This document shows positions 2,889 to 54,474 of a stretch of 64,000 nt of DNA, piece after piece. Every line of letters begins with the position of its first letter. Positions within the stretch are counted from its first letter, which is position 1. Origin of the DNA: an uncultured Candidatus Saccharibacteria bacterium (lineage in GTDB: Bacteria; Patescibacteriota; Minisyncoccia; UBA6257). Position numbers and translations under genes: made by a program. Location: the NCBI GenBank assembly GCA_964479005.1, contig CAYZJA010000001.1, positions 192,001 through 256,000 of the forward strand, read 5' to 3'. The notes under the pieces are model-generated. The model did not search any database and had not been told where the DNA came from. It saw only the letters and a list, made by a program, of their open reading frames with translations.

Positions 2889-3506
2889 ATGTTGGATGAT
2901 AAATGTAAAAAATGTAGGGCAGTTGGGGAGAAACTGTTTTTAAAAGGAGAAAGATGCTTTACTCCCAAATGCGCCTTAATAAGAAGGGGATTTAGGGTTT
3001 TAGGAAAAAGGAGAAGAAGAAAAACGTTAACTTCTTATGGCAAACAGTTATTAGAAAAACAAAAGGTAAAGTTAGCTTATGGAATGAGGGAAAAACAATT
3101 TAGAAGATATTTTAAAATGGCGTTAAAAAAGAAAATTTCTACTCCAGAAGCTTTTGCTCAATTAATAGAAAATCGTTTTGATAATACAGTGTTTCGTTTA
3201 GGATTTACTATTTCCAGAACGATGGCTAGACATTTAGTAAGCCATGGCCATTTTTTCTTAAACGGACGAAAACACAATATTTCTTCTACAATTGTGAAAA
3301 AAGACGATGTTATTTCTATCAGGCCACAGAGTAGCAGCAAAGCGCCTTTTAAAGATATTAAAGAAAGATTAAAAAAATATAGTCCTCCAAAGCATCTTAA
3401 ATTAGATATGAATAAAATGGAAGGAAAAGTTATGGCAGATCCAGATTTAGAAGAATTACAATTGCCTTTTGATTTCACTTCAATTGTAGAATTTTATAGC
3501 AGATAG
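2889..3506 (+). CDS. rpsD: 30S ribosomal protein S4 (zinc-ribbon type)
   Basis: N-terminal CKKC...CFTPKC zinc ribbon; S4 domain NGRKHNISSTIVKKDDVISI. Confidence 0.9.
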   Translation: MLDDKCKKCRAVGEKLFLKGERCFTPKCALIRRGFRVLGKRRRRKTLTSYGKQLLEKQKVKLAYGMREKQFRRYFKMALKKKISTPEAFAQLIENRFDNTVFRLGFTISRTMARHLVSHGHFFLNGRKHNISSTIVKKDDVISIRPQSSSKAPFKDIKERLKKYSPPKHLKLDMNKMEGKVMADPDLEELQLPFDFTSIVEFYSR

Positions 3507-3559
3507 TATTAATTTGATTTAAAATTAAAAACTACAAAATTAAAAATTATATTAATATC

Positions 3560-4486
3560 ATGTTTCATTTACCTTCTTCAATAAAAATCATTGAGCAAGA
3601 AAAAAACTATGGAAAATTTGAAATCGAAGGACTATATCCTGGTTACGGAGTAACTATTGGTAATGCATTAAGGCGAGTTCTCCTTTCTTCCATAGAAGGC
3701 GCGGCAGTAACATCCTTTAAAATTAAAGGGGTTCATCATGAATTTTCTACTATTAATTATATTTCTGATACAGTTTTGGACATAATGCTTAATTTAAAAC
3801 AATTAAGAGTAAAACTGCACAGTAACGAGCCTCAGGTTTTAAAATTAAAGGTTGAAGGCGAAAAAAAGGTATATGCCAAGGACTTTGAATCTAATTCCAT
3901 GGTGGATGTAATGAACCCTGATTTATATATTACAGCCATTACAGATAAAAAAGGCAAAATAGAAATGGAGGTAGTGGTAGAAAAAGGATTAGGTTATTCA
4001 CAGGTAGAAGAACGCAAGGAAGATAAGATACCAATAGGTACTATTGCTGTTGATTCTATTTTTAGTCCGGTTCGAAGGGTTAATTTTCAAGTAGAAAATA
4101 TGAGAGTTAGGGAAAAAACCGATTACAATCGTTTAATTATTTCAATTGAAACAGATGGCTCTGTTTCTCCAAAAGAAGCGCTAAATAAAGCATCTGCGAT
4201 TTTAAAAGATCATTTTATTAATATTGAAGAAAAATTTGTTCCAGAACTTAAAGAAGAAAAAAAGGTTACTTCAAAAAAAGCAGGTAAGGAACCAAAAGAT
4301 ATCCTCATAAAAGATTTAGATTTGGGCTCTCGAACAAAAAAAGCCTTAATAAATAATGGAGTCAAGACTTTAGCTGGCTTATTGAGATATAACGAAGAAA
4401 ATTTATCAACCATGGATGGTTTAGGTAAGAAATCATTGGAAGAAATAAAAGCAATTCTTAAAAATTTAAAGTATACATTAAAGTAA
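3560..4486 (+). CDS. rpoA: DNA-directed RNA polymerase subunit alpha
   Basis: 308 aa; NTD YGKFEIEGLYPGYGVTIGNALRRVLLSSIEGAAV; CTD with LGSRTKKALINNGVKTLAGLL. Confidence 0.9.
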   Translation: MFHLPSSIKIIEQEKNYGKFEIEGLYPGYGVTIGNALRRVLLSSIEGAAVTSFKIKGVHHEFSTINYISDTVLDIMLNLKQLRVKLHSNEPQVLKLKVEGEKKVYAKDFESNSMVDVMNPDLYITAITDKKGKIEMEVVVEKGLGYSQVEERKEDKIPIGTIAVDSIFSPVRRVNFQVENMRVREKTDYNRLIISIETDGSVSPKEALNKASAILKDHFINIEEKFVPELKEEKKVTSKKAGKEPKDILIKDLDLGSRTKKALINNGVKTLAGLLRYNEENLSTMDGLGKKSLEEIKAILKNLKYTLK

Positions 4487-4524
4487 GAACCTGCTCGCTC
4501 TGCTCGCAGAACCTTGTTTCTCAC
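4487..4524 (+). promoter_or_regulatory. conserved intercistronic motif GAACCTGC-N-CAGAACCTTGTTTyTCA immediately after the rpoA stop (second copy after priA at 32711-32740)
   Basis: Near-identical 30-38 nt motifs, TAAGAACCTGC...CAGAACCTTGTTTCTCA versus TAAGAACCTGCTTTACAGAACCTTGTTTTTCA, both fused to a TAA stop and followed by the next cistron (rplQ, def). Confidence 0.4.
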
Positions 4525-4544
4525 TTTGTTCGAAATAAAAATAG

Positions 4545-4931
4545 ATGAAGCATCTAAAGAAAGGGAAAAAATTCCATAGAAAGACAGGCCAACGAAAAGC
4601 TCTTTTAAAAGGTTTAGCTGCCAATTTAATATTACGGGAAAGAATTAAAACCACTCCAGTAAAAGCTAAAGAGACAAGAACTAAAGTAGAGAAATTAATA
4701 ACTATTGCCAAAAAACAAAATTTAATTGCCCTAAGAAAAATTAAAGAAGATTTACCAGAGAAAGCAGCTAATAAATTATATTATGAAATTGCTCCATTGT
4801 ATAAAGATAGAAAAGGCGGATATACCAGAATTATTAAAACCTCAATGAAAAAGGTTAGAGATGCTTCGCCTTTAGTCATATTAGAATTTGTTAAAGAACA
4901 AAAAACAGTAAATACAGTAAATAAAGAATAA
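4545..4931 (+). CDS. rplQ: 50S ribosomal protein L17
   Basis: MKHLKKGKKFHRKTGQRKALLKGLAANLI...GGYTRIIK typical of L17. Confidence 0.9.
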   Translation: MKHLKKGKKFHRKTGQRKALLKGLAANLILRERIKTTPVKAKETRTKVEKLITIAKKQNLIALRKIKEDLPEKAANKLYYEIAPLYKDRKGGYTRIIKTSMKKVRDASPLVILEFVKEQKTVNTVNKE

Positions 4932-5294
4932 ATGGAAAAAGAGAACAAAAATGTTGTTACAATAGATGCCAAAGACAAATCTTTAGGAAGAATGGCGTCC
5001 AGGATTGCTGTTTTGCTTCAAGACAAACATAAGGCTCAATATGCCCCAAATAAAGTTGGTGATACAGTTGTTATAATAGAAAATCTTAGCAAGATAAAAC
5101 CGTTTAAGGAAACAAAATTAAGAACAAAAACTTATTATAAGCATACTGGTTACATAGGCCACTTAAAAGAGACAAAGTTATCTGATATGTGGGAAAAAGA
5201 TCCAGTAAAAGTCCTTAAAATAGCTGTTAGAGGTATGTTGCCTAAAAATAAACTCAGAGATAAAAGACTAAAAAGATTAGAAATAAACTTGTAA
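4932..5294 (+). CDS. rplM: 50S ribosomal protein L13
   Basis: 120 aa; LGRMASRIAVLL...VVIIENLSKI...GMLPKNKL matches L13. Confidence 0.85.
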   Translation: MEKENKNVVTIDAKDKSLGRMASRIAVLLQDKHKAQYAPNKVGDTVVIIENLSKIKPFKETKLRTKTYYKHTGYIGHLKETKLSDMWEKDPVKVLKIAVRGMLPKNKLRDKRLKRLEINL

Positions 5295-6088: not shown

Positions 6089-6316
6089 ATGAATAACAAA
6101 CCCATCATAACTAAGGAGAAAGCACAAAAACTTTCTAAGCTTTTCGATAATCCTACTAATTTTAAACAGGCTTGTATTAAGGTTTTATTAGAAGTACCTG
6201 ATGAAAAACTGGATTTTTACAAAGGGAACTTGACTTTTTCAAAAAATGGTGGTACAATTTTGACGAAAATAGAACAATTTTGCGAACAGAAACAATTTAA
6301 GAGTTTTAAGAATTAA
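6089..6316 (+). CDS. small hypothetical protein, paralogue 1 (75 aa)
   Basis: MNNKPIITKEKAQKLSKLFDNPTNFKQACIKVLLEVPDEKLDFYKGNLTFSKNGG...; about 70% identical to the next ORF; no SD; ATG abuts a TATAAT box. Confidence 0.5.
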   Translation: MNNKPIITKEKAQKLSKLFDNPTNFKQACIKVLLEVPDEKLDFYKGNLTFSKNGGTILTKIEQFCEQKQFKSFKN

Positions 6317-6317
6317 A

Positions 6318-6428
6318 CAATTGAATCATACAATTTAATTAGTTTGCCGAGAAGGTGACGCTAACCGAAGAGGGGCGTCTAGACTATCTCTAAGTTTATT
6401 AGGGGTCGTCTGGACACCCCTTTTTTCA
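6318..6428 (+). repeat. about 110-nt GC-rich structured 3' element, copy 1 of 2 (nested hairpins GGGGCGTC...GACACCCC plus T-run)
   Basis: Near-identical copy at 6662-6772; ends in CCCCTTTTTT (terminator-like). Confidence 0.6.
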
Positions 6429-6653
6429 ATGAATAACAAATTTATTATAAACAAAAGAAAATATCAGGAACTTTCTAAACTCTTTGATAATCCTACTAAT
6501 TTTAAGGAAGCTTGTATAAAACTTCTGTTAGAAATACCAGATAAAAAATTAGATTTTTACAAAGGGAACTTGACTTTTTCAAAAAACGGTGGCATGATTC
6601 TAATGAAAATAGAAGAATTATGTGGGTCAAAACACTTTAATTTTAAAGATTGA
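6429..6653 (+). CDS. small hypothetical protein, paralogue 2 (74 aa)
   Basis: MNNKFIINKRKYQELSKLFDNPTNFKEACIKLLLEIPDKKLDFYKGNLTFSKNGG...; ATG lies 2 nt after the T-run of the preceding hairpin. Confidence 0.5.
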   Translation: MNNKFIINKRKYQELSKLFDNPTNFKEACIKLLLEIPDKKLDFYKGNLTFSKNGGMILMKIEELCGSKHFNFKD

Positions 6654-6661
6654 ACCTACAT

Positions 6662-6772
6662 AGATTAAATCATACAATTTAATTAGTTTGCCGAGAAGGT
6701 GACGCTAACCGAAGAGGGGCGTCTGAACTATCTCTAAGTTTATTAGGGGTCGTCTGGACGCCCCTTTTTTTA
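6662..6772 (+). repeat. about 110-nt structured 3' element, copy 2 (stem GGGGCGTC/GACGCCCC plus T7)
   Basis: Direct repeat of 6318-6428 with a perfect outer stem in this copy. Confidence 0.6.
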
Positions 6773-6938
6773 TTGGAAATTATTGGGAAAAAATATCAAC
6801 TGGATATTGAGAAAAAAATAGTACTTTATAGCACCTTGAAAAATAGCACCTTGAAATAAAAATTTAGTGAAATGAGAGATAAGAAAAAGATAAAAGTATA
6901 AGAAAGAAATGTATTAGAAAGAAAGGAGGTGAAACAAA

Positions 6939-23109: not shown

Positions 23110-24066
23110 ATGAAAAAGAACCAAAAACCAATCCCCTGTCATTTATCTGATTTTTTAGATTGGTTAGATATTGAAAAAGGTTTATCTTCTAAATCCCAGG
23201 AAAATTATAATAGATTTTTAAAAAAATTTTTAGATTGGTTAAAATCAAATAATTTAGAGGGTTTAAAGCCTCATGAATTAACTACTGATCATGTTTGGAA
23301 ATATCGGGTTTTCCTCTCGCGCCGATATCTTCCTAAAACGAAAACACCCCTTAAAAAAACAACTCAAAATTATTATTTAATAGCTTTAAGGTCCTTTTTG
23401 AATTATTTTGCTGATAGAGATATTTTGTCTTTACCATCTGAAAAGATAAAATTAGCTAAAGATAGAGATGAAAAACAAGTTAGTTTTTTAAATTTAGAGC
23501 AATTAGAGAAATTATTTTCAGCTCCTGACACTTCTAAAAAGCAAGAATTGCGGGACAGAGCTATTTTAGAGGTTTTATTCTCTACTGGTATGAGGATAGC
23601 AGAATTAGTTTCATTAAACCGGGATCAAATTAAAATAAATCCTGGAATAAAAGAATTAGAAGTTGGGATTATTGGCAAAGGGAAAAAACTACGAACTGTT
23701 TATTTCTCTGAAAGAGCTCTATCTTGGTTATCTAAATACTTTAAAACCCGAAATGATGATGAAAAAGCGTTATTTATCAATTATAGAAGCAGGAAAGGAG
23801 CGCCACGGAGATTAACTCCACGTTCAATTGAAAAAAATATGAAAAAATATGTGATTATGTCAGGGGTTCCAATAACAACTACTCCTCACGCCATGCGCCA
23901 TACTTTTTCGACAGATCTTTTAAATCAAGGCGTGGATTTAAAAATACTCCAGGAATTTCTTGGCCACAAAAGCATTGCCGCTACACAAATTTACGCGCAT
24001 GTTACGAGTAAAAAACTTCGTGAGGTACATCGGAAATTTCACAGTGGCCGTAAATTAAAAACATAA
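23110..24066 (+). CDS. tyrosine site-specific recombinase (XerC/XerD / phage integrase family)
   Basis: N-terminal SAM-like domain; catalytic region HAMRHTFSTDLL...LGHKSIAATQIYAHV (R-H-R-Y signature). Confidence 0.8.
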   Translation: MKKNQKPIPCHLSDFLDWLDIEKGLSSKSQENYNRFLKKFLDWLKSNNLEGLKPHELTTDHVWKYRVFLSRRYLPKTKTPLKKTTQNYYLIALRSFLNYFADRDILSLPSEKIKLAKDRDEKQVSFLNLEQLEKLFSAPDTSKKQELRDRAILEVLFSTGMRIAELVSLNRDQIKINPGIKELEVGIIGKGKKLRTVYFSERALSWLSKYFKTRNDDEKALFINYRSRKGAPRRLTPRSIEKNMKKYVIMSGVPITTTPHAMRHTFSTDLLNQGVDLKILQEFLGHKSIAATQIYAHVTSKKLREVHRKFHSGRKLKT

Positions 24067-36503: not shown

Positions 36504-37531
36504 ATTCCTTTTATTTTTGTATTACATTTTGGGCATTTCTCGTTTTTCAAATTATTTTCTAAGACTTCCATACCCCATCGTTCTATGATAAGTGAATTAC
36601 ATTTTGGGCAATAAGTACTTTCATAATCAGAATTTGGTATATTTCCAGTATAAATATATCGTAATCCAGCTTTTTTACCGATTTCACAAGCATTAATTAA
36701 AATTTCTTGGGATGTGGGCGCTTGAGTAAGCATTTTATAGCATGGATAAAAAGCAGAAATATGCCATGGCAAGTCTTTGGAAATTCCTACCAGAAATTTT
36801 GCTATTTGTTTTAGTTCTTTTGTGGAATCATTAAATCCAGGAATTACTAAAGTAGTAACTTCTATCCAAATTCCCATTTTCCAGATTTTTTTAATATTCT
36901 CTTTAACTGGCTCTAATCGTCCCTTACAAGTTTTTCGATAAAACTTTTCTGAAAAACTTTTTAAATCTATGTTAATTGCGTCAAGATAAGGCGCGATAAA
37001 ATTAAGGGTTTTTTCTGTCATAAAACCATTAGAAACCCATATATTTTTAATCCCCTCTTTTTTTGCTAATCTCATTGTATCTAAAGCGTATTCTGCCCAA
37101 ATAGTAGGTTCATTATACGTATAAGCTATAATGGGAATATTGTTTTCTTTGCAATAATTTACTATTTTTTCTGGTCCCCATTCTTCTCCATAATGTTTTA
37201 TGCCCTGAATTTTGTCAAAAGGTTTTGGGGCTTGAGAAATTTCCCAGTTTTGACAAAAATCACAATCAAAATTGCATCCTAAAGTTCCTAAAGAAAAAGC
37301 TTTCTGGCTTGGTAAAAAATGAAAAAGAGGCTTTTTTTCTATGGGATCAATATTTACACTTATAGCTTTCCCGTAAACTAAAAGATAAAGGTCGCCATTT
37401 ATATTTTGACGCACCCCACAAATTCCAATTCTTTTATTGTTAATGAGGCACTGGTTATGACAAGCCAGACATTGAACTTTATTATCCTTTAATTTTTCAT
37501 AAAGAATCGCCTTTTTCATATTTTTATACAT
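36494..37531 (-). CDS. AmmeMemoRadiSam system radical SAM enzyme
   Basis: CNFDCDFCQNW (C-x3-C-x2-C); N-terminal CLACHNQC and C-terminal CPKC...CPKC extra cysteine pairs. Confidence 0.8.
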   Translation of the reverse strand: MYKNMKKAILYEKLKDNKVQCLACHNQCLINNKRIGICGVRQNINGDLYLLVYGKAISVNIDPIEKKPLFHFLPSQKAFSLGTLGCNFDCDFCQNWEISQAPKPFDKIQGIKHYGEEWGPEKIVNYCKENNIPIIAYTYNEPTIWAEYALDTMRLAKKEGIKNIWVSNGFMTEKTLNFIAPYLDAINIDLKSFSEKFYRKTCKGRLEPVKENIKKIWKMGIWIEVTTLVIPGFNDSTKELKQIAKFLVGISKDLPWHISAFYPCYKMLTQAPTSQEILINACEIGKKAGLRYIYTGNIPNSDYESTYCPKCNSLIIERWGMEVLENNLKNEKCPKCNTKIKGIWN

Positions 37532-43560: not shown

Positions 43561-43604
43561 AATTCTTTTATTTTAGCACTTTTAAGCTAAAAATAACAAC
43601 TTTT

Positions 43605-43633
43605 CGCTTCGCCACGTCAAACGTGGCTTCGCT
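43605..43633. repeat. palindromic 29-nt motif CGCTTCG-CCACGTCAAACGTGG-CTTCGCT (copy A)
   Basis: Perfect inverted repeat CCACGT-caa-ACGTGG flanked by direct GCTTCG; reverse-complement copy at 53478-53510. Confidence 0.6.
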
Positions 43634-43674
43634 CAAGAACGTTGTTTTCTCATTTTATTCGAAAATAAAAGAAA

Positions 43675-47443: not shown

Positions 47444-47594
47444 AATATATTCTTTATTCTAATTATATACTGTATTTTATCAAAAAAAATGCTGTCGCCT
47501 TTCGAAATTAGATAGCAAGCTATTTAATATCTCTAGACAACAGCATCCCCATTATAGCAAATCAAAATAATTTGTCAAGCCCTACCCCAATTTT

Positions 47595-48350
47595 TTAATC
47601 AAGTTCTATTCCTATTGGACAATGGTCTGAATAAATAACTTTATTGAGAATGAAACTTTTCTTAATTTTTGGAATTATCATTTTTGAAACAAAAACATAA
47701 TCTAACCGCCAGCCAAGATTTCTTTCTTTTGCATTGAATCTATATGGCCACCAAGTATAATTTTCTCCTTTTTTATTGAATTTTCTAAATGTATCAATAA
47801 ACCCTAATTCAATTATTCTATCTATTTGCCTTCTTTCTTCTAAAGTGAACATTATATTATTTTTATTATCTTCCGGTCTGGCTAAATCAATTTCCTTATG
47901 AGCTATATTAAAATCACCAATTAATATAATGTTTTTATCTTGAATCTTTTTCAAATAATTAATGAGACGATTATAAGTTTTTAATTTGTAAGCAAGATTC
48001 CTTTTATCGTGCGCTCCGTGTGGAAAGTAAAGATTAATTAAAGTAAAACCAGGATATTTAAGCCTTAAAATCCTTCCTTCTTGGTCAAATCTTTTTAATC
48101 CTAATTTATACTCAATTCTTAATGGTTTCTTCTTAGTATAAACAGCTGCACCACTATATCCTTTTCTTTCTGCAAAATTAAAATAAGAATAATATCCTTC
48201 TGGTTTAATCAATTCTTCTGGTATTTGTCCTTTTTGTGCTTTTATTTCCTGTAGACATAATATATCTGGATTGGTTTTTCTCATCCATTTGAAAAAATTC
48301 TTTCTATATACCGCCCTTATTCCATTAACATTCCATGAAATAATCTTCAT
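47595..48350 (-). CDS. xth: exodeoxyribonuclease III (AP endonuclease, EEP family)
   Basis: MKIISWNVNGIRA, LCLQE, GDFNIAH, SDHCPI. Confidence 0.85.
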   Translation of the reverse strand: MKIISWNVNGIRAVYRKNFFKWMRKTNPDILCLQEIKAQKGQIPEELIKPEGYYSYFNFAERKGYSGAAVYTKKKPLRIEYKLGLKRFDQEGRILRLKYPGFTLINLYFPHGAHDKRNLAYKLKTYNRLINYLKKIQDKNIILIGDFNIAHKEIDLARPEDNKNNIMFTLEERRQIDRIIELGFIDTFRKFNKKGENYTWWPYRFNAKERNLGWRLDYVFVSKMIIPKIKKSFILNKVIYSDHCPIGIELD

Positions 48351-48435
48351 ATTCTAATTCTACCCCTTTAACAGGCTCAGGGCAAACAAAAAATCGCCTC
48401 TTTCACCATTTTAAAAGTATTCCAATAAATTTAAA

Positions 48436-48462
48436 ACCCCGGTTTTAAACCAACCGGGGCTC
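48436..48462 (-). terminator. intrinsic terminator CCCCGGTT...AACCGGGG for the 48504-49109 gene
   Basis: 8-bp GC stem followed on the minus strand by TTTTAAATTTATT. Confidence 0.55.
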
Positions 48463-48503
48463 TTAAAATACTTTGATGAATATACAATTAGTTTGTATAT
48501 TCT

Positions 48504-49109
48504 TTAGGGAAGATAATATGGCATAGAAGCAAAGCCGAAGAAGAAAACAAGACCAATGATAATACATGCTAACACACCTACGCAAACAATAATATCTTCT
48601 TTATTGTCGTAATGAAAGTTTATTTCTCCTAAACCTTCACCCCAGGACCAACCTTCAATCCAGTACCTCCTATTTCCTTCTCTGTATTCATACAAATCAC
48701 TGTAAATAATCACTCCAAGTCCGCTAACAACAGCCGAGTATATTTTACTCAAGGAATAGTATCTATCTGTTTTAAGAAACTTGGATTCCTTTTTTCTAAG
48801 TTCAAAAAACGTATAAATAGTTCCTTCTGGTACCAATTCTAAAAATTGCTCCAAGCTGTCACACAGCACTGCATAATTTCCAAGAATACCAGCTTTTATT
48901 TCTTCTGAAAATTCCCCTTCTACACTATCAAACATATTCTCTATATTCACTTCTACCGCTCCATGAATTTTTTCTGACTTGAACATAATCTCTACATCTT
49001 TACTAAAGTGAATCAGAAAAACCACAGACCAAATTACAAAAATGCCTACTACAACTAAACTAATTATCATCCAGCATTTCAATCCTTTATTCTTCTTTCG
49101 ATTACTCAT
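48504..49109 (-). CDS. hypothetical membrane protein (201 aa; N- and C-terminal TM)
   Basis: ORF; SD AAGGGAGGAAG; preceded by the R1 leader module. Confidence 0.4.
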   Translation of the reverse strand: MSNRKKNKGLKCWMIISLVVVGIFVIWSVVFLIHFSKDVEIMFKSEKIHGAVEVNIENMFDSVEGEFSEEIKAGILGNYAVLCDSLEQFLELVPEGTIYTFFELRKKESKFLKTDRYYSLSKIYSAVVSGLGVIIYSDLYEYREGNRRYWIEGWSWGEGLGEINFHYDNKEDIIVCVGVLACIIIGLVFFFGFASMPYYLP

Positions 49110-49128
49110 TTTTCTTCCTCCCTTTTAA

Positions 49129-49340
49129 ATTTTTTTATTTTATATTATTAAACTATTTACTATATAACTAACTACTAATAATTTATAATAATCAGTTATA
49201 TAGTAAATAGTAAAAATATTGTTTTTCAAAGAACTAAAAATATCCTATTACAGGATATCATAAGTATAACATATTTTATATTGTTAGTCAATATATAATT
49301 TAGCTGGGGCTATGGAACGATGTTGGAACTTATTTCATAG
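49129..49340 (-). promoter_or_regulatory. R1 promoter-leader module: GTTCCA direct repeats, TTGACT-17-TATACT, operator palindrome ATATCCTATTACAGGATAT, perfect 18-bp inverted repeat in the leader
   Basis: About 80% identical to R2 (50262-50460); -35 at 49286-91, -10 at 49263-68, palindrome 49240-58, stem arms 49152-69 and 49194-211. Confidence 0.6.
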
Positions 49341-49345
49341 AAAAA

Positions 49346-49702
49346 TCACAATTTTAATTCTGAAATTATTGTTCTTCCAGATTCTTCTTTCTTTTTAAAA
49401 ATTAAGAATTTGGGACTAATCTTCAAATTTGGATCATTTGATGTCTCGGGTTTTAAAAACTCTGCTATTCCCTGAATTTGGAGTGTACCTTCTCTTGTTT
49501 GATCATCTATGACTAAAGAAACTGTTTGATTATTTAACAGATTTTTAAACTTTAATGAATCAGGGTTAGTTGAAATATATATATTAAAATCATCATCAAC
49601 TATATAATTAACTGTTGCTGCCCAGGGTCTATCTTCATAAGAAGTAGCCAACACACAATGCTTATGTTCTTTTAACCATTTTTTAATAAGTTCCTTTTCC
49701 AT
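49346..49702 (-). CDS. pyridoxamine 5'-phosphate oxidase-like FMN-binding split-barrel protein
   Basis: KWLKEHKHCVLATSYEDRPWAATVNY typical of the PNPOx-like / general stress protein 26 family. Confidence 0.6.
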   Translation of the reverse strand: MEKELIKKWLKEHKHCVLATSYEDRPWAATVNYIVDDDFNIYISTNPDSLKFKNLLNNQTVSLVIDDQTREGTLQIQGIAEFLKPETSNDPNLKISPKFLIFKKKEESGRTIISELKL

Positions 49703-49790
49703 TGTTCATATTTTACCAAAAAATCGCCTCTTTGACTATTTTAATTTAGCTACCCCTATGAAACGATATTGGAACCCATTTCATTAAATA

Positions 49791-49830
49791 AAATGGAGGC
49801 TGAAGAAATCTTATTTCTTTGCCTCCATTT
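49791..49830 (-). terminator. intrinsic terminator AAATGGAGGC...GCCTCCATTT
   Basis: 10-bp stem; on the minus strand followed by TTTATTTAAT. Confidence 0.55.
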
Positions 49831-49837
49831 AAAAAAA

Positions 49838-50242
49838 TTATTCCTCTATTACTTTTTTTATCATTTGTGCTTCAATCTCATTAGCTATAGCCGATACTAT
49901 AAGTGCAAACGTGAGCATTCCGTTTGCAATAGTACCAGTAACATCATGAAAGAACAAATAATTTCCCATGGCCACCCAGAAAAGAGCTACTGTAAACATT
50001 TCTTTGATAAAAATACCCCTCCTTATTCCACCCTTTGTGATGCTCCCGTAGATAATCCGAAGCATTGTTTTACTTGGGTTTCCCTTATGAGTAGGTACTT
50101 CTAGAGCTAAAAATATAGCTACTGCAGGACAAAAGAGAATTCCTGGATTGCGTGTTGCCCAAATCAACAATATCAGAAATGAAACTATTGAAAGCACAAC
50201 TCCTATTGCGTGAAGTACAGATATATATACTGGTCTATTCAT
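49838..50242 (-). CDS. hypothetical membrane protein (about 134 aa, 4 TM)
   Basis: The ATG (M4 of the ORF-track protein) sits 8 nt after SD AGGAGG; preceded by the R2 module. Confidence 0.4.
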   Translation of the reverse strand: MNRPVYISVLHAIGVVLSIVSFLILLIWATRNPGILFCPAVAIFLALEVPTHKGNPSKTMLRIIYGSITKGGIRRGIFIKEMFTVALFWVAMGNYLFFHDVTGTIANGMLTFALIVSAIANEIEAQMIKKVIEE

Positions 50243-50261
50243 TTTTTCCACCTCCTTTCAA

Positions 50262-50460
50262 ATTTTAATTAATATTAAACTACCTGTTATATAACTGACC
50301 ACTAATAATGTAATGACCAGTTATATAACAAGTAGTAAGTATATTGTTTTTCAAACAACTAAAAATATCCTATTACAGGATATTATAAATATAACATATT
50401 CTATGTTAGGAGTCAATACATAGCTGGTCCTATGGAACGATGTTGGAACCTATTTGGCTC
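50262..50460 (-). promoter_or_regulatory. R2 promoter-leader module (paralogue of R1): GTTCCA repeats, TTGACT-17-TATATT, the same operator palindrome, 18-bp stem with compensatory changes
   Basis: -35 at 50411-16, -10 at 50388-93, palindrome 50365-83, stem arms 50280-97 and 50318-35. Confidence 0.6.
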
Positions 50461-50543
50461 TCCTTCATTGAATACGCTTATAACTTTAGATTGATGAACT
50501 ATAGTAAAAGATTTATTTCTATTTGATAATTTAAATTTGAAAA

Positions 50544-50990
50544 TTATGGAAATATCCAATTGAGCAATTTGGTTTCTATCTTTTCCCGTAGCACAATGTT
50601 TTGAATTTTACCTATCAGCGAATTTTGAGAAAAAATGCATCCGTCAATCCTGGTTGCCTGACAAATAATTGCTCTCATCGGCTGTCTATAAATCTCCTTT
50701 GGATGTAAAAATTGATAATCGGATAATTTTATTATTTCATTTACTTTATCCTCGTAAAGCTTAGTTTTAGATAAGGGAATAGCAAATGCCATACTCTGAG
50801 ACCAAAAAGATTGATCCAGCCAAAGTATAATCGGTCTTGGTTTACCAATAACATTGCTCACTGTGTTATTTTGTCCGCAATAAGGACAAGAATAATTTGT
50901 AATAGAAAAATCCCTGCAACAGCGCGGATTAGAACATTTAATTGTTTCCGGAAATCTAGATATATAAATAATATCCCATTTGTGAAACAT
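50544..50990 (-). CDS. MazF/PemK-like toxin-fold protein with a 4-Cys zinc-ribbon insertion
   Basis: WDIIYISRFPE...[CSNPRCC...CPYC]...GKPRPIILW...AFAIPLSKT follows the MazF/PemK consensus, with a C-x4-CC...C-x2-C insert after strand 1. Confidence 0.5.
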   Translation of the reverse strand: MFHKWDIIYISRFPETIKCSNPRCCRDFSITNYSCPYCGQNNTVSNVIGKPRPIILWLDQSFWSQSMAFAIPLSKTKLYEDKVNEIIKLSDYQFLHPKEIYRQPMRAIICQATRIDGCIFSQNSLIGKIQNIVLREKIETKLLNWIFP

Positions 50991-50993
50991 ATT

Positions 50994-51521
50994 TTAAAAT
51001 GGCAAATCTTCTTTTTCTTCCGGCTCTGATTCCGTTTTTTTTGCAACATCCAAAATATCGTCCCTTTTTGATTCTTGAACAATTGGAAGTTTATAAACTA
51101 TATCAAGCAAATTTTGAAGACTAAGATTACCAAATGAATCAACGACTTCATCAATTATTAATAATTTTTCAGGGCCGAGCGATTTTAATAACTGTTCTTT
51201 TATAGAAACTTCCTTTTTTAAATAATATCTGGTATAGGATTTAGTTTCCTTTCTAGTTAAAGGAAACTTCTTTATTTCAATATACCCAATGTTAGAAAGA
51301 TGATTAGTATAATTGTCTAATTCTACTGTAAACGGGCCGTGTAAATATTTTTTGTATTCCATCACGGTAATTTTTTCTTTTAATCTCCGCATTGCTAAAA
51401 TATCACTCAAAAAAAGTAATTTTTGAAGATGGGTTTTACCGAGAATACCATCTAATCTTGAAATCAAATAAAAAACCACTGCGAGAGTATCTTTATCTAA
51501 CTTAGCTTCGCTTTTGACCAT
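50994..51521 (-). CDS. Panacea-domain (DUF4065, SocA-like) putative antitoxin
   Basis: HLQKLLFLSDILAMRRLKEKITVMEYKKYLHGPFTVEL matches the Panacea core; 4 nt upstream of the MazF-like gene. Confidence 0.55.
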   Translation of the reverse strand: MVKSEAKLDKDTLAVVFYLISRLDGILGKTHLQKLLFLSDILAMRRLKEKITVMEYKKYLHGPFTVELDNYTNHLSNIGYIEIKKFPLTRKETKSYTRYYLKKEVSIKEQLLKSLGPEKLLIIDEVVDSFGNLSLQNLLDIVYKLPIVQESKRDDILDVAKKTESEPEEKEDLPF

Positions 51522-51603
51522 AATATTGAACTTTCTTTATTTTAAGTATAGCCTAAAAAGAAAGTCAAGTAAACAAACCAGTAATAACTTTTCTTTCATA
51601 GAT

Positions 51604-51915
51604 TTATTTATTTTGCTCTTTCTTCGCTGAATTAAAAATATTAGCTTCTATCTTTTTCATTATTCTTCCGCCAATAGATATATAAACGATAAAGGCTAAA
51701 ACAATTGTTGTGATTCCAGCTATCCAAGAAAAAATAAAAAACGTAGTAATAATTAATATAATCCCTAAGATAATAAGGGAATTATTCCAAATCAAAACAT
51801 TTGGTTTTTTAGATAGAATCTTCTTGGACCAAGTATTATTAACAGTAATATAGGCAATAATCAATATTGATCCTAACAATAGTAAATAAAAGATATTTCC
51901 AAAAAATTCAAACAT
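51604..51915 (-). CDS. hypothetical membrane protein (103 aa, 3 TM)
   Basis: ORF only. Confidence 0.35.
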   Translation of the reverse strand: MFEFFGNIFYLLLLGSILIIAYITVNNTWSKKILSKKPNVLIWNNSLIILGIILIITTFFIFSWIAGITTIVLAFIVYISIGGRIMKKIEANIFNSAKKEQNK

Positions 51916-52023
51916 AGATTTATTTTAACTTCTTTCGCCACGCCTAGTACCCATTGTTTATTCTACCAAAAAATCGCCTCTTTGGCGATTTCGATGTATC
52001 TCGGTCCCTCGATAAAAAAACTA

Positions 52024-52062
52024 GACGGCTGGGGGACTAGGATTCGAACCACTCGGGTCGTC
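52024..52062 (-). other. decayed tRNA 3'-end fragment (T-arm GGTTCGAATCC plus acceptor-like TCCCCCA), possible att remnant
   Basis: The plus-strand text tggggga-ctagg-ATTCGAA-cc parallels the T-arm and acceptor layout of the intact tRNA at 52732-52821, but the T-stem 3' arm is mismatched and no 5' half exists. Confidence 0.45.
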
Positions 52063-52082
52063 CTATTGTCCCAACAATATCC

Positions 52083-52676
52083 TCATAATAGATAATCTGG
52101 AATAGGATAATCTTTAAATTCATTTAAAAGTAATTTTCCAAAAATCAATCTTGAAAATGCCTCTGCTTCCACTTTTGCTCCAGTTAAGGCATTATGGGGC
52201 CTTGGTTCATCAGGTAATCCTATATAATTTAAAATTTTATCTGAATTTAGATCTGTTTTATTATCTTTTATTGGAGGTTTGAGCCCTCTTTTAAGATAAT
52301 GGGTGTAGCATAAAGAATGTAAATCAATGGTCCTATAACTAAGAGTCCATTCAATTCCATATTTTTGCATAGAAGATTTAAGAAAATCTCTATCAAATGA
52401 TGGATTTTCGCCAGCCATTGTTTTGTCTTTAATATCTTCTGCCCATTTAAGAAAATCCTTTATTATTTCTTCTAAATTTCTTTTATTAGGATCTATAATT
52501 TCTGCGTTCGAAAAACCATTAATTTTTAATGCTTCTTCTGTCACTTCTGCGCCATCCCAAATTTTGCATTCTTGATAAAATTGATTTTCTGGATTAAAAA
52601 AATCTACAGCTCCAATGCTTACGATTGAATTTTTGTAAGGATCCAGTCCAGTTGTTTCAGTATCAACTACTATCAT
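52083..52676 (-). CDS. DnaQ-like DEDDh 3'-5' exonuclease
   Basis: MIVVDTETTGLDP (Exo I), later H-x4-D motif region. Confidence 0.7.
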   Translation of the reverse strand: MIVVDTETTGLDPYKNSIVSIGAVDFFNPENQFYQECKIWDGAEVTEEALKINGFSNAEIIDPNKRNLEEIIKDFLKWAEDIKDKTMAGENPSFDRDFLKSSMQKYGIEWTLSYRTIDLHSLCYTHYLKRGLKPPIKDNKTDLNSDKILNYIGLPDEPRPHNALTGAKVEAEAFSRLIFGKLLLNEFKDYPIPDYLL

Positions 52677-52729
52677 ATGTTTTTATTATTTTTAAAATAT
52701 GATTCAAAATTAACATTTTTTGCTTATTT

Positions 52730-52821
<92 letters not shown>

Positions 52822-53266: not shown

Positions 53267-53395
53267 AATTTTAATTAATTTTGTTAAATTTTTTATTTCG
53301 ACCTCATAAACATTTTAGCAAATTTTTCTTATTTTGTCATTAATATTAATTAAATAACAAATAATAACTAACAATTAAAAATATAAAATTTCTCA

Positions 53396-53592
53396 AGAAG
53401 CAAGTATTTGCTCCTGAACGACATTAGTGGAAGCAGAGATACAAACAAATGAAACGAATGATAGGGAAAGCCGAAACTGGAGCGGAGCCACGTTTGACGT
53501 GGCGGAGCGGAATTTCGGAAGGCTTCCAGAGCGAGTGAATATTGTTTGTCTCTGCTGGAATGCAGGAGAGAAGGGGGAAATACTTGCTTCTA
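53396..53592. ncRNA. candidate roughly 197-nt rod-like structured RNA (6S-like architecture), strand undetermined
   Basis: Perfect 13-bp closing helix GAAGCAAGTATTT/AAATACTTGCTTC (53397-409 and 53578-590); further long-range pairs CTCCTG/CAGGAG and GCAGAGATACAAACAAAT/ATATTGTTTGTCTCTGC; apical hairpin carries the CCACGTTTGACGTGG motif; unusually GC-rich; 323-nt intergenic. Confidence 0.45.
53478..53510. repeat. palindromic motif copy B (reverse complement CCGCTCCG-CCACGTCAAACGTGG-CTCCGCTCC)
   Basis: Same core and flank pattern as 43605-43633, inverted orientation, at the apex of the rod-like structure. Confidence 0.6.
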
Positions 53593-54474
53593 CACATCCA
53601 TTTGTCTCAAAGCCTTTACCCTTTCTTCTATAAGAGGATGAGTCATCCAAAGCTTGCTTACTGCTTTTTTTCTAAAAGGATTAGAAATAAAAAGATGGCT
53701 TGTCGCATTTGAAGCAACTCGTAAAGGATTTGGATCCTGAGAAATTTTCTCTAATGCACGTGCTAATCCTTCTGGATAGCGAGTTAAAAGCGCTCCTGAA
53801 GCATCAGCTAAGAACTCCCTTTTTCTTGATATGGCTAGTTTGAGTAAAGTAGCTGCTAAAGGCGCTATAATAGCGGCTACGATGCCAATTACCAGCATAA
53901 TAAGACCTAAATTACCTTTACTATCTCTATTTCTTCTTCCCCAAAACAAAGACCTGAAAAGCCAATCTGATAATAAAGCAATCATACCAACCAAAACCAC
54001 AACTACTGAGGATAAAAGAATATCACGATTGCCAATATGAGCTAATTCATGAGCAATAACTCCTTCTAATTCAGATTTTTCCAATTTATCTAATAATCCT
54101 TGCGTGACACAAACAACCCCGTGTTTAGCATCTCTCCCAGTGGCAAATGCATTAGGAGAAATATCATCAATAATATAAATCTTCGGCATTGGCAATCCAG
54201 CTGTAATAGAAAGATTTTCCACTATCCTGTATAATTCTGGATTATCCTCTTTTTTTATTGGTTTTGATTTAGTTAAAGCAAGAATAATTTTATCAGAATG
54301 CCAATAACTGGAAAAACTCCAAAATACACTAAAAATAACAGCAATATATAAAATCAACAACGATTCAAAAATATAACTAAAAACCCATCCTAAGGCAATA
54401 ATTAATATCAAAAAAACCGTGATTAAAAACCACGTTTTCCGAATATTAGAATCGACTTGTGTGTAAAGAGTCAC
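53590..54474 (-). CDS. htpX: zinc metalloprotease HtpX (M48)
   Basis: HELAHIGN (HExxH), 4 TM. Confidence 0.85.
   Translation of the reverse strand: MTLYTQVDSNIRKTWFLITVFLILIIALGWVFSYIFESLLILYIAVIFSVFWSFSSYWHSDKIILALTKSKPIKKEDNPELYRIVENLSITAGLPMPKIYIIDDISPNAFATGRDAKHGVVCVTQGLLDKLEKSELEGVIAHELAHIGNRDILLSSVVVVLVGMIALLSDWLFRSLFWGRRNRDSKGNLGLIMLVIGIVAAIIAPLAATLLKLAISRKREFLADASGALLTRYPEGLARALEKISQDPNPLRVASNATSHLFISNPFRKKAVSKLWMTHPLIEERVKALRQMDV

Follow-up and report, generated by a model that had tools for sequence, protein, structure and literature searches.

Promoter-plus-structured-leader modules heading small ORFan genes in a cassette island of an uncultured CPR bacterium

The sequence analyzed here is a 64,000-nt stretch (positions 192,001 to 256,000 of contig CAYZJA010000001.1, referred to throughout as the window) from an uncultured ultra-small bacterium of the candidate phyla radiation (CPR), in which the genes at ∼46 to 53 kb all lie on the minus strand. 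Two segments of this region, R1 (49129–49340) and R2 (50262–50460), align with each other over their whole length on the minus strand, and each precedes a gene for a small membrane protein. We find that R1 and R2 are members of a large family of portable promoter-plus-structured-leader modules in CPR/Patescibacteria that has at least 55 distinct copies and is attached to a closed pool of small, almost all ORFan genes. In the direction of transcription, the parts are a 27-nt box, a promoter, a palindrome (P1), a linker, a long hairpin (P2), an A-rich spacer, a strong Shine-Dalgarno sequence (SD), and an ATG. Their positions, together with the associated open reading frames (ORFs), are as follows.

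49303–49329, minus strand: R1 box A (GTTCCAACATCGTTCCATAGCCCCAGC), a repeat at the cassette border that is similar to a tRNA 3' end
49263–49291, minus strand: R1 promoter, TTGACT-17-TATACT with TG extension
49239–49259, minus strand: R1 P1 hairpin at the predicted transcript 5' end
49212–49238, minus strand: R1 conserved U-rich linker UUUUUAGUUCUUUGAAAAACAAUAUUU, probably single-stranded
49152–49211, minus strand: R1 P2, a 26-bp RNA hairpin with an 8-nt loop
49107–49122, minus strand: R1 SD (GGGAGG) and ATG of a 201-aa ORFan membrane protein (ORF 48504–49109)
48433–48463, minus strand: intrinsic terminator closing the R1 cassette
50423–50449, minus strand: R2 box A (GTTCCAACATCGTTCCATAGGACCAGC)
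50388–50416, minus strand: R2 promoter, TTGACT-17-TATATT with TG extension
50364–50384, minus strand: R2 P1 5'-terminal hairpin
50279–50336, minus strand: R2 P2, a 26-bp RNA hairpin with a 6-nt loop
50240–50255, minus strand: R2 SD (GGAGG) and ATG (50242) of a 134-aa ORFan membrane protein (ORF 49838–50242)

An initial annotation of this DNA had described R1 and R2 as paralogous promoter-leader modules, and much of that description is borne out. The end-to-end similarity is real (86% identity over a 112-nt core and 84% over the leaders), the promoters are present as described, and the three stem positions reported to covary between R1 and R2 are correct. The stem had been drawn as 18 bp around a 20- to 24-nt loop; the hairpin exists, but when G·U pairs are counted it extends to 26 bp with a loop of 6 to 8 nt. 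The minimum free energies of the whole leaders were −40.4 kcal/mol for R1 (z = −6.7) and −41.3 kcal/mol for R2 (z = −6.6). The 27-nt box of R1 and R2 consists of GTTCCAACATCGTTCCATAG followed by CCCCAGC or GACCAGC. Besides the two copies of GTTCCAACATCGTTCCATAG that had been noticed as a GTTCCA direct repeat (49310–49329 and 50430–50449), a third copy with two mismatches had been missed (49756–49775), giving three box matches in the window compared to 0.01 expected by chance. The palindrome ATATCCTGTAATAGGATAT occurs in the window only at R1 and R2, with 0.06 occurrences expected. The 201-aa and 134-aa proteins are unrelated to each other, as had been claimed, and neither matched a family in a Pfam search; a crude hydropathy count predicted two and three transmembrane segments, respectively. 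The start of the 134-aa protein at ATG 50242 lies at the proper distance from its SD.

The initial annotation had proposed a search for further copies of the module, and this search was productive. When one genome per species was scanned for the box pattern, 28 loci were obtained, mostly in CPR metagenome-assembled genomes (MAGs) labelled Saccharibacteria, Nealsonbacteria, or Jorgensenbacteria; one 484-kb MAG contig held at least 11 exact box copies. Metagenomes were scanned with a 21-nt pattern spanning the −10 element and the first bases of the palindrome, which gave 86 loci; 74 hits were true modules, 55 of them distinct, with no more than four per contig. We refer to these as R-type modules. 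The promoter is a near-consensus sigma-70-type promoter with an extended −10 (TGTTATAyT), and TTGACy was located exactly 17 nt from the −10 in 55 of 55 copies, a spacing that lay outside the search pattern. The predicted 5' untranslated region (UTR) had a median length of 145 nt in the 55 modules. A covariance model built from 52 leaders had no matches in the window other than R1 (103 bits) and R2 (108 bits), whose antisense strands scored 31 to 33 bits, and it found five further copies in MAG loci that had been retrieved via the box alone. R1 and R2 are each 90 to 91% identical to copies in other genomes compared to 84% with each other; thus, they did not arise by local duplication, and their designation as local paralogs does not hold. 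Searches of the window and 10 module-rich loci against Rfam returned only tRNAs at the gathering threshold and, with an E-value cutoff, just chance miRNA-like hairpin matches of 18 to 23 bits. No description of these elements was found in the literature on CPR integrons, islands, and RNA motifs, and we conclude that the module family is previously undescribed. A viral origin was considered and rejected: scans of IMG/VR gave 0 box A, 3 leader-pattern, and 1 box B matches, and locus L121 from that database was a chance match within phage structural genes. In a second IMG/VR locus (L122, 14690–14819), box B lies exactly at the junction between ∼120 nt of AT-rich, CPR-like sequence and a phage contig of 45 to 57% GC that encodes terminase, portal, and capsid genes. 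Integration, if true, would be important; the junction is probably an assembly chimera at a repeat and was left unused as evidence.

RNAalifold analysis of a 52-sequence alignment, also suggested in the initial annotation, recovered two helices, P1 and P2. P2 comprises 24 pairs in the alignment (24 to 26 bp across copies, without internal loops in most), and 97.2% of the cells were paired in the 52 copies. Changes on both sides were observed for 13 of the 24 pairs, amounting to 103 cells compared to 24 ± 4 after shuffling; none of 500 shuffles reached the observed value, and moving the partner by 1 to 3 columns lowered the pairing to 30 to 53%. Two stem classes, CUAUCUGCUAUAUAACUG... and AUAGGCACAAGAAAAGUG..., have almost no stem letters in common and adopt the same fold in register. 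The sense strand folded better than the antisense strand in 53 of 53 cases (mean energies of −31.8 and −16.5 kcal/mol, respectively), because G·U pairs, which make up 279 of the 1671 pairs (17%), turn into C·A on the other strand. P2 is therefore an RNA structure kept paired by compensatory and G·U changes, a compensated helix on the transcribed strand between promoter and SD as in other structured cis-acting 5' leader RNAs. These results uphold the earlier view of the long stem as a conserved RNA hairpin rather than a protein site, and the independent mutation of the stem arms that had been named as grounds for refutation was not seen in these copies. The apical AUUA/UUAGU and one U·G wobble are invariant in all copies, which suggests that a factor reads that end of the helix. 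A leader peptide was excluded as the conserved entity, with the reading frame broken by 1- to 2-nt indels and by loop lengths that are not multiples of three.

P1 contains eight pairs and was 98.5% paired in the same alignment. The hairpin begins 5 nt past the −10 hexamer, so that a start at the usual distance falls on the first P1 base pairs. Variation in P1 is confined to A-to-G changes on the 3' arm (U-A to U-G, ∼20 cells), which the 5' arm never mirrors. The initial annotation had read this sequence as an operator-like palindrome; a palindrome is indeed present at the predicted start, but its one-sided variation is more readily explained by a 5'-terminal RNA hairpin than by a symmetric protein site. 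The core ATATCC/GGATAT is highly conserved, leaving room for protein binding. The linker UUUUUAGUUCUUUGAAAAA that follows is nearly invariant, and a third small hairpin considered within it (GUUCUUU/AAGAAU) performed no better than shuffled or slid controls. Such features invite a purely transcriptional interpretation, in which the modules would define a regulon with the palindrome ATATCCT-N5-AGGATAT and/or the linker at +20 to +45 as operators and GTTCCA-N5-GTTCCA, with its 11-bp period, as an activator site. The perfect palindrome overlaps the predicted start in both R1 and R2, the linker is conserved in sequence without a supported helix, the period of the direct repeat equals one helical turn, and the R-type genes form a closed pool that always keeps the module, all of which would be in keeping with a regulon. 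The retention of U·G on one arm of P1 speaks against it, as do several properties of the box (below), and we regard this explanation as improbable.

Translational control was evaluated from the pairing of the SD. In 12 of the 52 leaders, a conserved anti-SD (UACCUUCU) located directly 5' of P2 pairs with the SD (−9 to −12 kcal/mol, z ∼ −2.9); these comprise ten type 2 leaders (L026, L040, L042, L045, L055, L065, L079, L089, L095, and L113) plus L032 and L090. No anti-SD was found in the other group of 40 leaders, which includes R1 and R2 (mean of −3.8 compared to −2.8 kcal/mol for shuffled sequences); therefore, the family has two regulatory designs. The anti-SD leaders lend some support to a ligand, temperature, or attenuation riboregulator, in which P2 and its flanks would switch to expose or hide the SD or to terminate transcription. 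The 40 leaders lacking the motif do not conform to this mechanism, no terminator was called after P2 and no U run follows it, the fold consists of two plain hairpins with no junction or pocket, and the downstream genes have no common function that hints at a shared ligand. A riboregulator of this type thus appears quite unlikely, and the thermosensor or attenuator offered in the initial annotation is not supported; in R1 and R2 the SD is unpaired.

The remaining features of this part of the window concern the box and the island in which the modules reside.

49709–49775, minus strand: R3, the third box (GTTCCAATATCGTTTCATAG) followed by a canonical terminator/promoter composite; heads a PNPOx-like gene (49346–49702)
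52028–52054, minus strand: box T, a pseudo-tRNA 3' fragment (GAGTGGTTCGAATCCTAGTCCCCCAGC) at the usual box position
52732–52821, minus strand: tRNA-Ser(GGA); the variable island has its proximal border at the 3' end of this gene
47493–52731, minus strand: hypervariable cassette island, with flanks syntenic with L040/L070/L106 and L021 and an unrelated interior

The GTTCCA repeat had been taken as part of the module, but it proved to be independent and commoner. About 180 to 190 distinct box contexts were present in the collected loci, with subtypes A (GGTTCCAACATCGTTCCATAGCCCCAGC) and B (GGTTCTAACATCGTCCAGTTCCCGGAGC) and the rarer C and D. The sequence 3' of the box was the canonical composite of this lineage (terminator hairpin, T-run, and TGGTAGAAT) in 53 cases that include R3, an R-type module in 38, a third promoter type in six, and plain terminators or other sequence in the remainder. 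Conversely, 35 of the 55 R-type modules have a box or part-box directly upstream, and in eight of the 55 a real tRNA 3' end or tRNA 3' fragment replaces the box at the same position. The replacing ends are those of tRNA-Asn, tRNA-Trp, or box T (GTGGTTCGAATCCACGTCCCCCAGC); their last 7 to 8 nt plus the spacer match the corresponding box subtype, and the tRNA-Asn and tRNA-Trp ends directly abut modules. In the window, box T is followed by CGTCTAGTTTTTTTATCGAGGGACCGAGA (CGTCTAG...), which follows box A in other genomes. The distance from box to −35 varies from 13 to more than 40 nt. Boxes are intergenic in 167 of 179 instances and share the orientation of the upstream gene in 151 of 153 and of the downstream gene in 142 of 153; the flanking genes converge on the box 11 times but diverge from it only twice. 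Terminator-like hairpins are present close to the box, no more than 100 nt downstream for 59% of cases and no more than 85 nt upstream for 16%. The variable spacing, the mixed followers (promoters of other types and terminators among them), the tRNA 3' ends that take the same position, and the orientation pattern make the box unlike an activator site and constitute the further evidence against a regulon. The pattern is consistent with a border element linked to where the preceding unit ends. We conclude that the box is a separate, far commoner repeat that is not specific to the module; it is similar to a tRNA 3' end and delimits single-gene cassettes. Its most plausible interpretation is a recombination or boundary repeat that originated from tRNA 3' ends. 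Because the box often lies in the 3' UTR of the upstream gene, a role at the RNA level is also possible.

Several additional observations relate to the box. The lineage's canonical intergenic composite, AATCGCCAAAGAGGCGATTTTTTGGTAGAAT, is found on the minus strand at 37500–37527, 48387–48414, 49717–49744, and 51967–51994 of the window and at many loci. It combines a short, terminator-like GC hairpin and T-run with an extended −10, often with an ATG within 10 to 20 nt, and looks like a single module with two tasks, terminating the upstream gene and promoting the next one, whose leader is short or absent. Box T (GTGGTTCGAATCCACGTCCCCCAGC) lies 15 to 35 nt after three different tRNA-Ser genes, occurring in the window and in L010, L016, L017, L040, L051, and L100, and does not resemble the tRNA-Ser 3' end. 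A gene for a 197-aa DnaQ-like exonuclease (52083–52676) separates tRNA-Ser from box T in the window, whereas the two are 28 nt apart in L040, which looks like an occupied versus an empty site. Some boxes (L033 8890–8945, L059, L039 9560–9620, and L090 3910–3960) are split at the same point (after GGTTCYAAC or AACATC) by a 24- to 31-nt insert with its own small hairpin; the two halves are evidently separable. In L079 (5657–5700) the left half of box B is positioned head-to-head with an inverted box D (GTTCTAACATCGTCCAGTCCCC|CTACAGGACGCGTTTAGAACC), a fusion that would be produced by inversion between two boxes with crossover between their left and right parts. At L037 (3350–3460 and 4190–4300), L075 (∼2020–2100), and L034, ∼110 nt lie between the left half of the box and its right part (ACTGGGGAGC plus promoter); this insert contains a small reverse-strand ORF (e.g., MENKDYIAIMKEKLLKIKRIYGNLELNPMAEQC) that ends inside the box. 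An apparent overlap of box D with a conserved protein on the reverse strand, "LQDAFRTIDW," was dropped, as no ORF of at least 40 aa was present there.

Comparison with related loci revealed a hypervariable island around R1 and R2. Synteny of the window with L040, L070, and L106 is evident on either side of the island. Homology (79 to 87% identity) extends from 56318 to 52731, stopping precisely at the tRNA-Ser(GGA) 3' end, and resumes at 47492; the cassettes between the flanks are unrelated and occupy 5.2 kb in the window and 7.8 kb in L040. L021, from the 484-kb MAG contig, shares the distal flank and carries different cassettes, each located behind a box and a canonical promoter. Four contigs have dnaX, tRNA-Gln, dcd, and tRNA-Asn in common and diverge totally from the tRNA-Asn 3' end onward. 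The L010 array comprises tRNA-Ser(CGA), three cassettes, and a terminal box abutting a convergent core gene. Box-delimited segments recur in other orders: units adjacent in L075 are separated and reversed in L036, and cassette C13 has different neighbors in L040 and L066. In the comparisons made, the shared blocks start 0 to 15 nt upstream of a box. The arrays hold co-oriented cassettes of variable content and order, as in integrons, and they begin at a tRNA 3' end and contain partial tRNA 3' repeats, as in tRNA-linked islands. An integrase was sought near the arrays. A Pfam search of 118 proteins neighboring boxes or modules identified no recurring integrase family, neither an adjacent integron-type tyrosine recombinase (intI) nor, at the arrays examined, an element-encoded integrase of the tRNA-linked-island type, and phmmer with the Xer-like protein of the window found no match among the ORFs of at least 100 aa in all loci collected up to that stage. 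The only recombinase gene of the window is this Xer-like gene (23110–24066), 26 kb away. An rve-family transposase gene in L016 (103–1047), just upstream of tRNA-Ser(GCT), was rejected as a local integrase as it is not recurrent. The same locus carries, at 3387–4988, a 533-aa reverse transcriptase (RVT_1) as one box-bounded cassette. Within the window island, a SocA/Panacea-domain protein (175 aa) is followed by a 148-aa Cys-rich ORFan (50544–51521, minus strand); the two are likely a toxin-antitoxin-type pair, and a similar pair forms a box-bounded cassette in L010.

The cassette setting raises the question of an attC-like site. Boxes A, B, and T do not fold (z between −1.6 and +1.3). P2 does fold, and it might be viewed as an attC-like single-stranded-DNA hairpin, the true cassette junction, whose folded strand is read by a recombinase. 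This idea accords with the cassette-array context, with a structure that is kept while its sequence varies, with the asymmetry of the two strands, and with the upstream sequence shared by L042 and L068, which stops exactly at the start of P2. P2 is nevertheless always placed between promoter and SD along the direction of transcription, within the 5' UTR, and it has neither RYYYAAC/GTTRRRY cores nor conserved bulged bases; 17% of its pairs are G·U and one U·G is invariant. Moreover, canonical-promoter cassettes are equally shuffled without a P2-like hairpin, shared blocks begin at the box rather than at P2, and no tyrosine recombinase is near any array. An attC-like function of P2 is consequently very unlikely.

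The genes led by R-type modules encode proteins of 50 to 200 aa, about half of which have predicted transmembrane segments. In Pfam searches, 49 of 51 had no family and the other two were DUF5658; PHROGs provided no meaningful match (best E ∼ 3e-4). Among homologs of these ORFs in the collected loci, 136 of 155 were again R-type-led or were second genes of an R-type-led operon, and none was located behind a canonical promoter. In contrast, most of the larger proteins (at least 170 aa) encoded near boxes or modules are ordinary enzymes, for example methyltransferases, UDG, and HAD hydrolases, and the canonical-promoter cassettes examined closely also encode ordinary enzymes, such as the M20 peptidase of L010. 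The 55 modules are thus homologous promoters in front of non-homologous genes, each module attached to the closed ORFan pool. The retention of the module by homologous genes, with none behind a canonical promoter, indicates that module and gene move together, and it bears on whether the 200-bp module is itself a mobile repeat, a miniature inverted-repeat transposable element (MITE) or transposon end that inserts upstream of genes. The many copies within and between genomes would suit a MITE, and another element of the window (53342–53595) is a clear insertion with terminal inverted repeats. The modules, however, have no terminal inverted repeats or target duplications and are always co-oriented at a fixed distance from an SD-bearing start codon, so we give the MITE-like explanation very little credence. 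The initial annotation had opposed transposon ends to leaders; this was a false choice, as the modules are leaders that travel with mobile or swappable cassettes.

Overall, we consider it probable that these are portable promoter and structured-leader modules that give control of expression and of RNA stability or processing to the genes of the cassettes. The module would supply acquired genes with ready-made, strong, and uniform expression. Because the −10 ends 5 nt before P1, transcription is predicted to start in the first bases of P1, which would yield an mRNA with a flush 5' hairpin. In the E. coli ompA leader and the B. subtilis 5' stabilizers, 5' hairpins block decay that requires a free 5' end, and P1 may likewise shield the mRNA from such decay. 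The perfect P2 helix spans two and a half turns and carries an invariant motif at its apex, so it is probably a protein-recognition helix. It would be recognized by a double-strand-RNA-binding factor, most plausibly RNase III, which is the obvious candidate; P2 has the double-stranded helix of at least about 20 bp found in RNase III sites. The bound factor would set processing, half-life, or translation across the R-type gene pool. In the minority of leaders with an anti-SD, P2 may clamp the anti-SD to the SD, with cleavage or binding freeing the SD. The box would act as a recombination or boundary site rather than a promoter element. Exchange could be site-specific, using a recombinase in trans, or could proceed by ordinary recombination via the conserved modules after DNA uptake.

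Certain points weigh against this interpretation. The start site, the location of P1 at the 5' end, and the processing at P2 are predictions from sequence. The conservation of the −10 and the start of P1 is partly due to the retrieval pattern, which covered those positions, and the P1 palindrome could be a DNA operator as well. The linker is more conserved than any helix. With respect to any translational effect, P2 leaves the SD open in R1 and R2. The term mobile cassette rests on comparative patterns, which homologous recombination between conserved modules could also yield, and no recombinase was found near the arrays. A related and more tentative proposal, which we consider possible but rather doubtful, is integron-like gene acquisition without a local integrase: a recombinase in trans, or another mechanism, would insert and shuffle single-gene cassettes at box A, B, and T sites that originated from tRNA 3' ends, and the P1-linker-P2 of the ORFan pool would be read by a lineage-specific RNA-binding factor that exerts post-transcriptional control over the entire pool.

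The modules share features with several known systems. As in integron arrays (attI/attC, IntI), the units are co-oriented and contain a single gene, with a recurring site, a distal terminal site, and variable content and order; unlike integrons, the box is linear with no hairpin, each cassette has its own promoter, there is no adjacent integrase, and the array starts at a tRNA 3' end rather than attI. Phages have RNase III processing hairpins, such as the T7 R sites and those of SP82 early RNA, that are repeated in early RNAs. The R-type leaders are like these hairpins and the 5' stabilizers (ompA and B. subtilis) in having a flush 5' stem-loop and a helix of at least 22 bp before many small genes, here as predicted from sequence. 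Generic RNase III substrates need neither the invariant apical motif nor the U·G wobble that P2 possesses. Modular intergenic repeats are represented by the BOX elements of S. pneumoniae and the BIME/REP sequences of E. coli, and Acinetobacter has pdif modules. Similar to BOX/BIME/REP, the intergenic regions are built from a few recurring modules (pre-box, box, and promoter or terminator types), and, as with pdif modules, short sites delimit gene modules that do not carry a recombinase themselves. The box differs from pdif sites in having no inverted XerC/XerD-type arms and no hairpin, and from all of these repeats in its orientation, which is strictly tied to genes (with the upstream gene in the 151 of 153 cases noted above). 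Putative mobile promoters are similar promoter regions upstream of non-homologous genes within and across genomes (PMC3488235; PMC3575422). R-type promoter regions show this same distribution; the R-type unit, however, adds a 145-nt structured leader under RNA-level selection and stays with its own closed ORFan pool, whereas mobile promoters are reused before arbitrary genes. Additive flexible genomic islands linked to tRNAs and tycheposons have been described (bioRxiv 10.1101/2020.12.28.424599; for Alteromonas, PMC4898812). The island studied here resembles these in starting exactly at a tRNA 3' end, in having internal partial tRNA 3' repeats, and in the replacement of its content between strains of a streamlined genome. 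It is unlike them in its single-gene units of 0.4 to 1.5 kb without integrases and in a repeat that has diverged into its own consensus (boxes A and B) and is also found away from tRNAs. By analogy with these systems, the module may be described as a mobile-promoter-like unit fused to a stabilizer or processing leader in an integron- or tycheposon-like setting.

Two other elements of the window were noted. A GC-rich structured element of ∼200 to 250 nt (53342–53595, minus strand) has a 14-bp terminal inverted repeat (AGAAGCAAGTATTT / AAATACTTGCTTCT) and an RNA minimum free energy of −62 kcal/mol (z = −6.7). Its precise absence from the syntenic L040 and L070 indicates an insertion, which could be MITE-like or represent a small mobile RNA gene. 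The inner hairpin of the element, GCCACGTCAAACGTGGC, has an inverted second copy at 43602–43637, and the element had no match in Rfam. At 6089–6775 (plus strand), there is a tandem repeat of ∼340 bp, in which a small ORF of ∼75 aa (MNNKPIITKEKAQKLSKLFDNPTNFKQAC...) is accompanied in each unit by a GC-rich hairpin-terminator element; identity between units is 78 to 95%, and the neighboring genes (for a metallophosphoesterase and a trypsin-like peptidase) hint at a further accessory region.

CPR/Patescibacteria have tiny genomes and are not yet routinely manipulable, and little is known about how their accessory genes are expressed and exchanged. The leader family is a concrete RNA element with strong covariation in this group, and its near-consensus promoter could become a genetic tool for CPR organisms. 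The tRNA-3'-end-like box and the tRNA-linked islands point to a form of cassette exchange unlike that of integrons, tycheposons, or Xer modules. The modules mark a pool of dozens of small ORFans, often membrane proteins and probably co-expressed, that are good candidates for functions in host interaction or defense.

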